The notes beneath the pieces were generated by a model, which worked only from the letters and a program-made list of their open reading frames with translations, was not told where the DNA came from and did no database searches. The translations under genes and the position numbers were made by a program. From IMG/VR virus record IMGVR_UViG_3300021431_000075, positions 609,115-673,114 of that record: a DNA stretch of 64,000 nucleotides; one strand, 5' to 3'. Each line of letters opens with the position of its first letter. Within the stretch, counting starts at the first letter, position 1. The DNA comes from a virus (lineage: Duplodnaviria > Caudoviricetes). Positions 1,801 to 9,257 of the stretch are shown here, one piece after another.

Positions 1801-2907
1801 TTAATTATCAATATAAATCTCTGCAGAAGGGAAATTAGCGAATGGGATTTCTACAATATAGGAATTGTTACCTAATGATATGAGATTCCTATTGCTTGTG
1901 ATAGATTTTCCTTGCAACGGTGTTCCCGATGTAGAAAATTTCACACTAATTGGAACTTGCAAGAGTTCTGTATTTACATTCAATGTATTTTGTGTTTCAA
2001 GACGAATTGATAATCTGTTTGTCGAGTCGTACTTTGGTGAATACATCACAGCTTTTGTTATAATACTACGATATACGAAATAAGCAAGTGCTTCACCATA
2101 TCCAGCAAAATATATTTCATTGTTTGTATTCTTATTTGCAAGCATTTGAAAATACTGACGATAAATAGAGCCTTCTGCATCTATCGTGGTTACTGTTTCT
2201 CCACATGCTTGTTCATTTGCTAAGATTGTGTGCCAATGAGTGAAATTATTTAACCAACCGCCATTAAGAAGTGTTTCATCTATCTTTGCAGCAACAGTGT
2301 TAAGATATGAAATACCTATCGGATTGTCACCATTTGATGGGAATGCAGTATCATGCCATCTAAATGTACTTTCTTTGCTAATAAATCGTGCTATTGAATA
2401 AGGCATATTATTCGGTGTTCCATAACCGACACCATAATCAGTTTCACCGCTTATTCCTGAATTCCTTCCACCAAGCCAATATCCATCACTTTCTGCATAA
2501 GATTTGAAAGTCTGATTACCATAAGAGTAAGAAAACGCATTAGGCACTCTACCATACTGTTCAACAAACCTTGGTATATGATAATCATCTCTATATTCAT
2601 TATACATATCTTCTGATATGATACCACTGGTTGTACTTGGGTTTGCATTTGGGGTCCAGAAATAAACATCTGGCCAAAATAAGTTATTATCTATTAGTTC
2701 ATGTATTTTTTCAGTTGCTTCGTTTCCATAATTAGTATAATACATAAACGCGCCAACTTTAATGCCAAAATCTTCTGCAAGGTTCAAGACGCCAATAGAA
2801 CCATTTTGAACTTGGTCGCTTTGTTCTGTATATGTCATCTTTTTGCCTAATCTATGAGCACATATTTCTACATCATAGTCTTTTCGTGGGAAAAATATTA
2901 CATTCAT
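1801..2907 (-). CDS. Polysaccharide deacetylase (NodB/CE4)-like protein, last gene of left cassette
   Basis: 368 aa; FSYSYG and GGWLNNFTHWH resemble CE4 motifs 3 and 5. Confidence 0.5.
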   Translation of the reverse strand: MNVIFFPRKDYDVEICAHRLGKKMTYTEQSDQVQNGSIGVLNLAEDFGIKVGAFMYYTNYGNEATEKIHELIDNNLFWPDVYFWTPNANPSTTSGIISEDMYNEYRDDYHIPRFVEQYGRVPNAFSYSYGNQTFKSYAESDGYWLGGRNSGISGETDYGVGYGTPNNMPYSIARFISKESTFRWHDTAFPSNGDNPIGISYLNTVAAKIDETLLNGGWLNNFTHWHTILANEQACGETVTTIDAEGSIYRQYFQMLANKNTNNEIYFAGYGEALAYFVYRSIITKAVMYSPKYDSTNRLSIRLETQNTLNVNTELLQVPISVKFSTSGTPLQGKSITSNRNLISLGNNSYIVEIPFANFPSAEIYIDN

Positions 2908-2914
2908 AATAACA

Positions 2915-4240
2915 TTAAATCTTTACCTTAATTGTGTAGTTTGTGCTATCAATGTAAGCATATCCAGTTTCAATATTTGTGCCGTCGCTTACTGGTAAGT
3001 CAGCAAGTAAATTCTCGATTGTTGGCGTTTCGGATTCGCCTCCATCTTCACTACTTCCACCACTGTTGTTGGAACCTTTAATCGCATAACCCTTTATTTT
3101 TGATATTTCTTGCATAAACGGTTCAAATGATGGTAAAGTATTACCTTCACAAATCATCAATTCATCATAAGGTGTTTCCCAATCTTGAGGAATTGTACTA
3201 CTATTTGACTTTATATTAAAAAGAAGATATGCAGCATTATTCGGAGATGTGAGTGTTTTTGGAGATAAAAAACCTTTTGGATCTGAAAAAATATATGGAG
3301 AAGTGCCGCTTAATTCAATTTTTGCATCATTTGAATCACGGAAAACAAAATAACCAGCACGTCCGAGATAAAAACCACCGAATGTATAATCTGTATTTGG
3401 TTTAATTGCAATCCTAATATAACTCCAATCAGAACCGTTTGTAATATTACCAGTATTTGAAATGTATTTTCCTTCAACAATATTATTTGTCTTGTCTGCA
3501 AGATTCTTTCCGCTCGGTTCCAGAGTTAAATCATTATTATCTATATATTCTGTTAAATCAGAATGTTGTACATATTGCTGTAATGATGTAGATAATAAAG
3601 GATTAACTATATCTTCAATTTGTGAATTTGGAACTTTCAGTTCATATCCTTTTATTTTATTGACATAACTATAATAAGGTTTAAAAGAAGGTAAAGTATT
3701 ACCTTCACAAAGCATCAATTCATCATAAGGCGTTTGCCAATCTTGAGGAATTGTGCTACTGTCTGATTTTATATCAAAAAGAAGGTATGCGGCATTACTT
3801 GGAGTTGTGATTGTTTTGGGAGACAAAAAACCGTTTGGGTCTTTAAAGGCATATTGAGATGTTCCGCTTAATTCAATTTTTGCATCATTCGTGTCATGAA
3901 AAACAAAATAGCCTGTCCGTCCGAGATAAAAACCACCGAATGTATAATTTGTGTTTGGCTTGATTACAATCCTAATATAACTCCAATCAGAACCGTTTGC
4001 AATATTACCAGTATTTGTAATGTATTTTCCTTCAATAATATTTGTCTTGTTTGCAAGATTGTCACTTGCAACGATTGACAAATCATCATTACTTATAAAC
4101 TTCTCATTTACTTCATCAATAACATCTTGAATATTGTCAGCATCTAAACCACTTGTAGATGAATCATAAGATACTAAAGAAGCAACTGTGCTTATAGTAT
4201 AATCACGTTCTTCAACATTTATCTTCGTTACATTAGCCAT
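2915..4240 (-). CDS. Putative receptor-binding/fibre protein with two tandem carbohydrate-binding-like domains
   Basis: 441 aa; internal duplication with ~558-bp offset (NLAxKTN..IEGKYI..DWSYIRI..YTFGGFYLGR..PYDELM). N-terminus MANVTKINVE resembles MGNPIVTKITVE of 6290..8248. Confidence 0.55.
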   Translation of the reverse strand: MANVTKINVEERDYTISTVASLVSYDSSTSGLDADNIQDVIDEVNEKFISNDDLSIVASDNLANKTNIIEGKYITNTGNIANGSDWSYIRIVIKPNTNYTFGGFYLGRTGYFVFHDTNDAKIELSGTSQYAFKDPNGFLSPKTITTPSNAAYLLFDIKSDSSTIPQDWQTPYDELMLCEGNTLPSFKPYYSYVNKIKGYELKVPNSQIEDIVNPLLSTSLQQYVQHSDLTEYIDNNDLTLEPSGKNLADKTNNIVEGKYISNTGNITNGSDWSYIRIAIKPNTDYTFGGFYLGRAGYFVFRDSNDAKIELSGTSPYIFSDPKGFLSPKTLTSPNNAAYLLFNIKSNSSTIPQDWETPYDELMICEGNTLPSFEPFMQEISKIKGYAIKGSNNSGGSSEDGGESETPTIENLLADLPVSDGTNIETGYAYIDSTNYTIKVKI

Positions 4241-8248: not shown

Positions 8249-8276
8249 TTTCAATTATTAAAACAAAACAAAGATT

Positions 8277-9257
8277 ATGAGCGGCATAGCATTTATATTG
8301 GAAAACTCGGATTTTTCAAGCGAAAATATCGGCACAATAGAACTCGGTTCAGCGATTGAAAACATCGTTGATAGATACATATCATCTGCCGGAGGCAGTG
8401 CTTCAACATACAGGGCTGCTTTATTAAGGATGGTAACATCTCTAAAGCAAGAAAATATCTGGGATGGAATCGACATTTATCCTATGGTCGGCAACAATTT
8501 GACAATAAATCTCAATCCAACAGATGGTAAAGTAAAGGCAAATCTTGTTTATGATACAGACCATGCTACGATGGGAAACAATATGTTTACATTTGACGGT
8601 AACGGTCCGGGTGCAAGTTCAAACATAACTAACATGTCTGGCGAATATATAATATTGCCAACTGATTCAACAAGAGCAAATTTATATGTCTGTGCTGATG
8701 TTGAACTTAACGAAAATGCACAAACTCCCGGAATACCAAAGAATAGTAGATTCATTTATGGTCAACGTAATACAGGCAATATTAAATTTTTCACAGCAAG
8801 TTGCTCAACATGGGGTGATGGTTCATCGTCTCCTATAGTATTATTGTTGGATGCTTCTGGCGGAACTGGAAAAAATAGAGCAGCATATGACCCATCACAA
8901 GACAGATTAGTAAGAAGATTATACAGTTTCTCTATAATTGATATTGATGAAACGATTGACGAAACGAATTATACATCTGAAACTATTCTTCGTGTTAATG
9001 GAGCTAAGGTAACACCAGACAATTCACTTGGTGGATTTAAGACTACAGCCAAAAACGGAAGTTATAAGCTAAGTCAAAATAATGGAATTGGATTTATGGA
9101 GTCACAGGCAGGTGCAACTGGAATAGATGGATATTATACATTGGACGGAAACGTCCGATTCTTTGCCAGAGGTATCTTAAGTCAAGAAAATGCTCTTAAA
9201 GCAGACAATATCTTCAAGACATTCCTTGATAGCACAAAGCCATATACAAATTCATAA
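8277..9257 (+). CDS. Putative fibre-associated lectin-like (ConA/LamG-like) protein
   Basis: 326 aa, beta-rich; N-terminus MSGIAFILENSDFSSENIG resembles the micro-protein motif. Confidence 0.4.
   Translation: MSGIAFILENSDFSSENIGTIELGSAIENIVDRYISSAGGSASTYRAALLRMVTSLKQENIWDGIDIYPMVGNNLTINLNPTDGKVKANLVYDTDHATMGNNMFTFDGNGPGASSNITNMSGEYIILPTDSTRANLYVCADVELNENAQTPGIPKNSRFIYGQRNTGNIKFFTASCSTWGDGSSSPIVLLLDASGGTGKNRAAYDPSQDRLVRRLYSFSIIDIDETIDETNYTSETILRVNGAKVTPDNSLGGFKTTAKNGSYKLSQNNGIGFMESQAGATGIDGYYTLDGNVRFFARGILSQENALKADNIFKTFLDSTKPYTNS

Follow-up and report, generated by a model that had tools for sequence, protein, structure and literature searches.

A putative promoter-shuffling system for receptor-binding cassettes in a 673-kb megaphage

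The window analysed here, a 64,000-nucleotide stretch of viral DNA, is the last 64 kb (genome positions 609115-673114) of a 673,114-bp IMG/VR virus record. Near its left end, a tyrosine recombinase gene lies between inverted repeats that separate two divergent sets of fibre or spike genes. This locus is probably one node of a multi-site, recombinase-driven promoter-shuffling system of the megaphage. The organization that we favour, and consider likely, comprises two promoter-cartridge shufflons, of which one would switch on one of six receptor-binding cassettes and the other one of eight, with promoter control deduced from motifs. An earlier note on the window had proposed a self-contained invertible promoter switch between two cassettes; it was right in kind, as a segment with promoter and recombinase does lie between recombining sites, and too narrow in describing a two-cassette inverton.

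Cores, cartridges and cassettes

The segment that carries the recombinase gene is bounded by a perfect 24-bp inverted repeat, TTGTTTCTAAACAGGTAAGTTTCG on the left and its reverse complement on the right (coordinates in Table 1), which occurs nowhere else in the 673-kb genome and has a chance expectation of about 1e-7 in 8 kb. Weaker inverted similarity (76-87%) extends about 200 bp outward, covering the micro-open reading frames (micro-ORFs) and first codons of both fibre genes. Within the repeats, we confirmed the intact recombinase, a terminator just inside the left repeat and two late-type promoter motifs that face out through the right repeat, all of which had been described from the sequence. 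The parallel divergent layout outside them, with paralogous micro-ORFs, related fibre N termini and third genes, also held up. A scan of both flanks found no promoter motif between either repeat and its cassette, which supports the proposal that, as assembled, the right cassette (C-right) is linked to the promoters and the left one (C-left) is not. The terminator would insulate whichever cassette adjoins that end of the segment, hereafter the cartridge.

BLAST of the repeat region against the whole genome located two similar loci upstream of the window, pairs A and B, and genome 563-618 kb was found to hold 14 fibre-like genes arranged in seven divergent pairs. Every cassette has a core 44-190 nt before its first ATG, pointing into a short inter-pair segment. 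The type-1 core TTGTTTCTAAACAGGTAAGTTT, identical over 22 bp, precedes six cassettes (pairs A, B and C, the last being the window locus), and a related type-2 core, GTTTCTTATTCAGG(TAAGTT), precedes the other eight (pairs 3-6; for pair-6 right it lies 44 nt before the ATG, outside the window). The switch is thus not self-contained, as had been claimed. The genome contains 17 instances of the pattern GTTTCT-N3-4-CAGG, of which 13 coincide with array cores; the 14th core departs from it by one mismatch. The half-site CAGGTAAGT, common to all 14 cores, equals the eukaryotic 5' splice-site consensus, which we take to be a coincidence.

All 14 main proteins begin with a common N-terminal module of about 45 aa (alignment A1), and an accessory gene often follows. 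Their bodies contain GDSL/SGNH, DUF4886, beta-helix, Laminin_G_3+BNR, CBM_5_12, Peptidase_M14 and phage-fibre-repeat domains. From these domains and the shared module, the cassettes probably encode alternative receptor-binding/depolymerase proteins that would compete for a common attachment point and may set the host range.

Five of the seven inter-core segments are promoter-less blanks of 66 to about 80 bp, leaving one cartridge per core family, in pair C for type 1 and in pair 5 for type 2. Both cartridges have two tandem copies of the promoter motif reading out through one core. Across the 14 cassettes, the motif scan gave a strong facing motif only for C-right (16.9) and pair-5 left (16.8); the remaining 12 scored at or below 6.6, which is background. 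The pair-5 motifs face a 1549-aa fibre gene (genome 597093-601742, minus strand), and one of them is near-identical to the protease promoter. With late promoters at only one segment end in each core family, each genome would express one type-1 and one type-2 cassette.

No other 8-mer is as strongly enriched in upstream regions as the motif itself, [AG]ATAAATA (about 20-26 fold). It is present in 114 of 358 upstream regions, lies 28-50 nt before the ATG of 105 genes and precedes structural genes, including those for the prohead protease and baseplate wedge; the longer form AAGATAAATA occurs 32 times in the genome, compared with about 4 expected. On account of this enrichment and of its position, we accept GATAAATA as the phage's probable main structural-gene ('late-type') promoter element, and it may be the only promoter of the cassettes. 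Neither the 66-bp and ~80-bp spacers nor their flanks contained TAnnTTTG or a strong sigma-70- or Bacteroidota-type motif. A TATAAT in the 66-bp spacer lacks an evident -35 element.

The enzyme encoded in the pair-C cartridge is the sole tyrosine recombinase found in the 673-kb genome. Its profile matches were PF13102 (27.7 bits, cut-off 22.3), PF00589 (24.6 bits, E 2.4e-5, below the cut-off of 27.1) and the phrog_1 integrase (5e-15), with NCBIfam XerA far under cut-off. The C-terminal domain has the catalytic R-K-H-R-(H/W)-Y order, and 22 homologues of 34-85% identity all retain R187, K210, H290, R293, H316 and Y325 (alignment A2). An AlphaFold2 (AF2) model with a mean pLDDT of 88.4 has the two-domain fold (core-binding and catalytic), which Foldseek matched to XerA, lambda Int, Tn1549 Int, XerH and Cre with probability 1.0 and E values of 4e-8 to 1e-5. 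PDB sequence searches had given only spurious response-regulator matches (single sequence) or none (profile), so the fold search settled the family. Genes of the serine resolvase family (PF00239), five or six in number and IS607-like, lie far from the array, with none within it.

Alternative arrangements with breakpoints at the cores

Alternative partnerships were found through contigs that encode identical proteins, among them small open reading frames that stop within a core, which makes these frames blind to the flank. The evidence for rearrangement consists of contigs, which are few in number.

The type-2 evidence carries more weight than the within-sample type-1 contigs. Assemblies ERZ28612978 and ERZ28612959 bear one and the same BioSample label, and a 673,736-nt scaffold of the latter has the reference arrangement. 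A contig of ERZ28612978 (L040) places the pair-5 cartridge within pair 3, facing a 583-aa GDSL fibre. Compared with the in-silico recombinant, it has 1 mismatch in 8174 nt, which is a hybrid core, and the crossover is confined to GTTTCTTATTCA, a stretch of 12 nt that is too short for homologous recombination or a k-mer assembly chimera. The phage DNA is also nearly complete in two runs (X1 and X2) of one 2013 gut-metagenome sample. Among the k=31 Logan contigs of X2 is one, at full phage depth, in which the pair-5 left core continues into the end of a blank spacer on the opposite strand; in X1, pair 5 is spanned in the reference form.

Type-1 cores were likewise found in new partnerships. JGI metagenome 3300002641, which contains reference junctions (L024 and L026), also contains a 2604-nt contig (L030) that consists of the A-left flank, a core, the reverse complement of 4386-6108, a core and A-right, with 0 mismatches; in this state the cartridge promoters face the 967-aa A-left fibre. 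From ERZ28612978 come a 5334-nt contig in which the terminator end of the cartridge continues into A-right with 0 mismatches (L029) and a second contig in which the 66-bp pair-A spacer lies between C-right and the C-left flank (L016). Jointly, the two contigs represent a reciprocal swap of the two inter-core segments. In a third study (ERZ12302814), the promoter end leads into A-left (L056) and the 66-bp spacer into C-left (L022). The same reciprocal type-1 swap was present in three independently made assemblies (3300002641, ERZ28612978 and ERZ12302814) at 100% identity.

Relatives in other samples extend the set of partners, with the promoter end ahead of 738-aa and 989-aa cassettes. In another relative, whose recombinase is 98% identical (L012), the terminator end continues, through the core, into a homologue of pair-B right; the parental sites share only 23 nt, and in this genome such a joint would equal a 32-kb inversion. 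With shared stretches of 23 nt in L012, 12 and 22 nt in L040 and 14 nt in the X2 joint, these junctions are beyond what k-mer chimerism or homologous recombination can explain.

These breakpoints at the cores support the idea that the repeats are recombination sites. They do not fit a choice between two cassettes: the recovered alternatives, for example L030, L029, L056, L016 and L022, are exchanges between pairs. Within-sample type-1 contigs (L016, L029, L030 and L056) were weighted below the type-2 junction because short-read mis-joins are conceivable there, and the agreement of three assemblies argues against such mis-joins.

Several candidate joints were set aside. One that skips 1722 nt (14499->16222, L013) is best read as a pair-A/B contig placed on the C flanks. 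Joints at 9161/9350 and 14268/9103 in a further run (X3) lie within paralogous N-terminal sequence, and unitig breaks at the cores do not count as evidence, as flank-plus-core repeats longer than 31 nt explain them.

Proposed mechanism and competing explanations

We propose that the recombinase, possibly transcribed from the TAnnTTTG-like promoter at its 5' side, would bind cores of the form GTTTCT-N3-4-CAGGTAAGTT and catalyse conservative strand exchange between any two inverted cores of one family. One such event would invert the stretch that lies between two pairs. Segments would be swapped without net inversion, the state seen in L016, L029 and L030, by two nested events or by an intermolecular double exchange involving replicating genomes. 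The promoter ends would thereby be placed before one of the six type-1 and one of the eight type-2 cassettes. Transcription alongside the late genes, and incorporation of the products into the virion, would be limited to these two cassettes, and the terminator would protect the cassette that adjoins the far end of the recombinase cartridge. The sequences argue for the binding, strand-exchange and inversion or swap steps; we infer which enzyme acts on which site, its dual specificity and the expression of one cassette per family. A fuller version, for and against which the case seems to us evenly balanced, has two orthogonal shufflons served by one recombinase of dual specificity, one-of-six plus one-of-eight fibres per virion generation (up to 48 combinations) and blank spacers that act as parking positions.

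Several points weigh against this reading. The labels 'silent' and 'ON' derive from the motif scan, and unrecognised promoters or read-through are possible; that one enzyme acts on both core families is a supposition, and one core per blank type-2 spacer is degenerate beyond 14 nt. The repeats that the within-sample type-1 junctions cross are perfect over 46 nt (short flank plus core) and 70 nt (long flank plus core). Arrangements found side by side might belong to two stable strains, with no switching under way. In L018-L020, the C-right flank has polymorphisms of the A-left type, which indicates that gene conversion or homologous exchange acts on the flanks too. Finally, in-place inversion would be difficult to reconcile with segments as short as 66-80 bp.

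Of the alternatives, the strict form of the earlier proposal fares best and still appears unlikely: a two-state inverton in which the 1.7-kb segment flips in place and toggles only C-left and C-right. It would account for a perfect inverted repeat 2 nt longer than the core common to the other sites, and for a segment with the recombinase inside, promoters reading out at one end and a terminator at the other. Moreover, only two cores were seen over 21 kb of a relative of 84% identity (L005), which leaves room for a simple two-cassette form, and in both L005 and L012 the terminator end lies beside the long-type flank, opposite to the window, as a flip predicts. However, the genome holds four more identical cores and eight related ones, every alternative state is an exchange with pair A (pair B in L012) rather than an in-situ flip, and the contigs of four runs contain no opposite-strand joint at the C cores. 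We saw no in-situ inverted 4388-6106 in those contigs or in the 20+ fetched contigs, a weak negative given the few contigs and thin sampling.

Less probable is that the ~200-bp modules repeated at the 5' side of paralogous fibre genes undergo ordinary homologous recombination, giving strain mosaicism, and that the recombinase is an integrase or an unrelated passenger. Between cassettes the flanks have 75-97% identity, with up to 70 nt of perfect match beside type-1 cores, and the hybrid flank polymorphisms in L018-L020 indicate that some exchange or conversion of this kind happens. By contrast, crossovers are confined to 12 nt (type 2) or 23 nt (L012-type), and the exchanges are exact and reciprocal. 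The cores are conserved where flanks diverge, as in the 84% relative, and a similar core accompanies recombinase homologues of 57% identity; the recombinase always lies between two inverted cores, and no tRNA gene was found in the window.

We give still less credence to the view that the genome is static and that the alternative junctions are assembly chimeras or come from mixed related strains. The evidence is wholly from contigs, and the type-1 junction repeats of 46-70 nt exceed common k-mer sizes, with unitigs breaking at the cores accordingly. Against this, type-2 junctions share only 12-22 nt, one has a novel hybrid core that is not in the reference, and a type-2 junction is present in both an ENA scaffold and a k=31 Logan contig; the reciprocal type-1 swap recurs without mismatch in independently made assemblies. 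Least plausible of all, the cores could be regulatory sites of the fibre genes (operator, untranslated-region element or promoter part), inverted merely as part of divergent pairs and never recombining, which fits their fixed place in conserved 5' leaders but not the exact switch of identity between arrangements at the cores or the dedicated tyrosine recombinase between two of them.

Locus features, relatives and known systems

Table 1 Features of the window locus and of the cassette array (positions are those of the window unless marked genome)
Feature	Position	Strand	Remarks
Pair-6 right fibre cassette, 3' part	1-1722	+	826 aa, genome 608356-610836; shared N-terminal module (A1)
C-left second gene, 368 aa	1801-2907	-	Polysaccharide-deacetylase (NodB/CE4)-like, lead only
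C-left fibre/spike, 441 aa	2915-4240	-	Shared N-terminal anchor module; adjoins terminator end; no upstream promoter motif as assembled
Left micro-ORF, 25 aa (MGKLLIIKDADFEENS...)	4261-4338	-	Paralogue of right micro-ORF
Left type-1 core (recombination site)	4364-4387	.	First 22 nt identical at all six type-1 sites; junctions of L012, L029 and L030 here
Intrinsic-terminator-like hairpin	4454-4423	-	14-bp stem, T-rich tail; 3' of recombinase gene, just inside left repeat
Tyrosine recombinase, intact, 330 aa	4481-5473	-	Profile matches, catalytic residues, fold
TAATTTTG, Bacteroidota -7-like (TAnnTTTG) motif	5514-5521	-	About 40 nt upstream of recombinase ATG
Distal phage promoter motif AAGATAAATA	5653-5662	+	Faces right core
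Element of ~240 nt	5654-5894	+	Similar to two other genome loci
Proximal phage promoter motif AAGATAAATA	6017-6026	+	81 nt inside right core, reads out through core
Right type-1 core, inverted copy of 4364-4387	6107-6130	.	Junctions of L016, L030 and L056 here
Right micro-ORF, 24 aa (MGKIVIIKDADFEENS...)	6194-6268	+	Paralogue of left micro-ORF
C-right fibre/spike, 652 aa	6290-8248	+	Promoter-linked type-1 cassette in this assembly
C-right accessory protein, 326 aa	8277-9257	+	N-terminus of micro-ORF kind
Pair A (type 1)	cores genome 566142 / 566231		66-bp segment without promoter motif
Pair B (type 1)	cores genome 581505 / 581594		66-bp segment without promoter motif
Pair C (type 1, window locus)	cores genome 613478 / 615221		1719-bp recombinase cartridge, window 4388-6106
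Pairs 3, 4 and 6 (type 2)			~80-bp blank spacers
Pair 5 (type 2)	cores genome 601774 / 602175		387 bp, two promoter motifs

Domain assignments proposed for the cassettes in the window fared unevenly. The duplication within the 441-aa C-left fibre is real, a tandem duplication of about 558 nt at 3120-3977 (minus strand) with 300-nt cores that are 86% identical. The deacetylase assignment of the 368-aa protein is a lead: it had no Pfam match, an ESM Atlas feature score of 0.94 and structural similarity (TM 0.63-0.75) to PF01522 clusters. Matches of the 652-aa C-right protein to alpha/beta-hydrolases (esterase-like) were all below cut-off, and 'lectin-like' for the 326-aa protein is a faint lead only.

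Micro-ORFs of 24-26 aa precede the six type-1 cassettes (MGK[IL][VL]IIKDADFE[ED]NS..; the others lie at genome 566078, 566278, 581480 and 581680), and type-2 leaders are without them. They resemble N-terminal stubs of the accessory 'third gene' proteins (MGKALIIKGADFSAHSIG.., MSGIAFI..N.DFS..). Beside the switch, a gene for a 1446-aa protein (9315-13655, minus strand) contains 87/174/216-nt tandem repeats at 10574-11456. Its repeat content varies between the two same-BioSample assemblies; the version in L016 is called as 554 aa, with a difference of about 100 nt.

Next to the recombinase gene, 633 bp of the cartridge has no convincing open reading frame and holds both AAGATAAATA copies. The recombinase gene has TAATTTTG, and not the phage ATAAATA motif, in front of it; this may be a host-type promoter, in which case the enzyme may be produced by host RNA polymerase early in infection. 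The ~240-nt element begins at the distal promoter motif and is 72-77% similar to genome 442701-442950 and 74829-74961; the former copy likewise begins at AAGATAAATA, the latter lies just 3' of a TnpB gene, and the relative L005 has a complete TnpB at the matching position. The element could be an IS607/TnpB remnant, or else a non-coding RNA, perhaps an omegaRNA-like transcript. Elsewhere in the genome are five IS607-like units (76.6, 86.0, 119.4, 198.8 and 308.1 kb), each with a serine resolvase of about 200 aa; a TnpB-like gene lies beside four of the five, and at least 4 are directly behind a phage promoter motif. A weak match was also seen at window 46427-46726.

The genome has a GC content of 40.7%, and the window encodes the portal, prohead protease, baseplate wedge, a helicase and several proteins of more than 1300 aa. 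Although the IMG/VR record is classed as having direct terminal repeats, comparison of its first and last 50-5000 nt gave no exact match. Upstream of genes, a Bacteroidota-type -7 motif (TATATTTG, TAnnTTTG) is over-represented, which suggests a host from that phylum, probably one living in the ruminant gut; the DNA is partially present in sheep and bovine gut metagenomes of other studies. Megablast of window 1-10000 against GenBank phages gave no match. Searches of IMG/VR contigs, a set from which near-identical records may be absent, for the exact core and, through the recombinase, for the locus were both empty, and a core-plus-promoter-end pattern gave 4 matches in JGI metagenome contigs, of which only one, a relative (L051), was related. 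Rfam returned a single sub-threshold chance match for window 4200-6400.

Relatives point to conservation of the arrangement. In L005, both cores (with 1-2 substitutions) and both promoter motifs are kept where the flanks have diverged. Its cartridge (8693-9946 of ERZ28612944 scaffold_256) lies at the position homologous to pair B, with a terminase gene close behind, and with its two cores this phage may have a smaller, perhaps two-cassette, version of the system. A recombinase homologue of 57% identity is flanked by inverted GTTTCTAA[AT]CAGGTAA cores that lie 1.9 kb from each other, and the divergent genes on either side resemble each other at their N termini; one of 55% lies between divergent cassettes, one of them GDSL-type. 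A homologue of 41% (P0032) has an unrelated context (methylase, RtcB and RF-1), which indicates that one recombinase clade, and not the whole family, is tied to fibre switches. The system, including its core sequence, appears to be conserved in a clade of gut and rumen phages.

The closest match in logic among known systems is found in mycoplasmas. In the Mycoplasma agalactiae vpma and M. bovis vsp loci, tyrosine recombinases encoded in the locus (Xer1 and Mbr) act on sites in 5' untranslated regions, and inversions activate silent genes from one promoter (PMC2268961). What unites these loci with ours is a paralogous family with conserved 5'-leader sites, a unique promoter and an in-locus tyrosine recombinase; the counterparts here are 14 leader cores, one motif-bearing segment per family (as judged by motif scan only) and alternative arrangements with exact breakpoints. 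The likeness meant here is one of logic. Unlike vpma and vsp, the present system is viral and concerns multi-gene cassettes for virion receptor binding. It also has two parallel site families, each with its own cartridge, a recombinase that travels in one of them, and blank spacers between divergent pairs.

Site-specific inversion changes tail-fibre type and host range in phages Mu (Gin, G segment), P1 (Cin, C segment) and p15B (Min, a multi-site system). These share with our system the purpose of switching fibre type by phage-encoded inversion. They differ in using serine invertases that cross over inside the fibre coding sequence, swapping C-terminal parts behind a fixed promoter and N terminus. 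Our system has a tyrosine recombinase and 5'-leader sites, upstream of micro-ORFs and start codons, and it is the promoter that moves, with whole genes left intact. The Salmonella Hin/H segment is similar in having a recombinase gene and an outward promoter inside the invertible segment, but it is bacterial and uses a serine invertase with one site pair and a single downstream operon (ON/OFF). Invertons such as E. coli fimS, the Bacteroides capsule promoters (Mpi/Tsr) and M. penetrans mpl also place inverted repeats around a promoter segment, and in Bacteroides, of the same phylum as the likely host here, one recombinase acts on many loci. Each inverton locus, however, has its own promoter and flips independently, whereas most segments here are promoter-less and share a single cartridge per site family. 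The R64 shufflon (Rci) likewise combines a tyrosine recombinase with multiple inverted sites and many arrangements that select one adhesin variant; its compact 2-kb cluster shuffles pilV C-terminal coding segments, in contrast to the re-partnering of whole cassettes with a promoter over 52 kb.

The system would be a form of phase variation by site-specific inversion without a phage counterpart in the literature searched. We found no description of a phage promoter-shuffling fibre system, although the coverage was incomplete and novelty is not proven; a tentative 2026 report of 'potential viral invertons' (PMC13501310) contains nothing resembling it.

Phages known to switch host range do so by serine-invertase swaps of fibre tips (Mu, P1 and p15B) or by mutation (diversity-generating retroelements). 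Here, intact receptor-binding/depolymerase cassettes would be selected, from among 14, by a movable promoter, the logic of mycoplasma antigenic variation in a virus. The exchanges would also account for the poor assembly and apparent hypervariability of fibre regions in huge phages. As a tool, a compact recombinase with a 22-bp site pair, possibly with two orthogonal sites, has potential for cassette exchange. If the reading is correct, it would explain the large 'wardrobe' of esterase-, deacetylase-, peptidase- and lectin-type spikes in a 673-kb phage and would allow the phage to track hosts, probably Bacteroidota, that phase-vary their surface glycans, a programmable bet-hedging device for host range of a kind not described for viruses.

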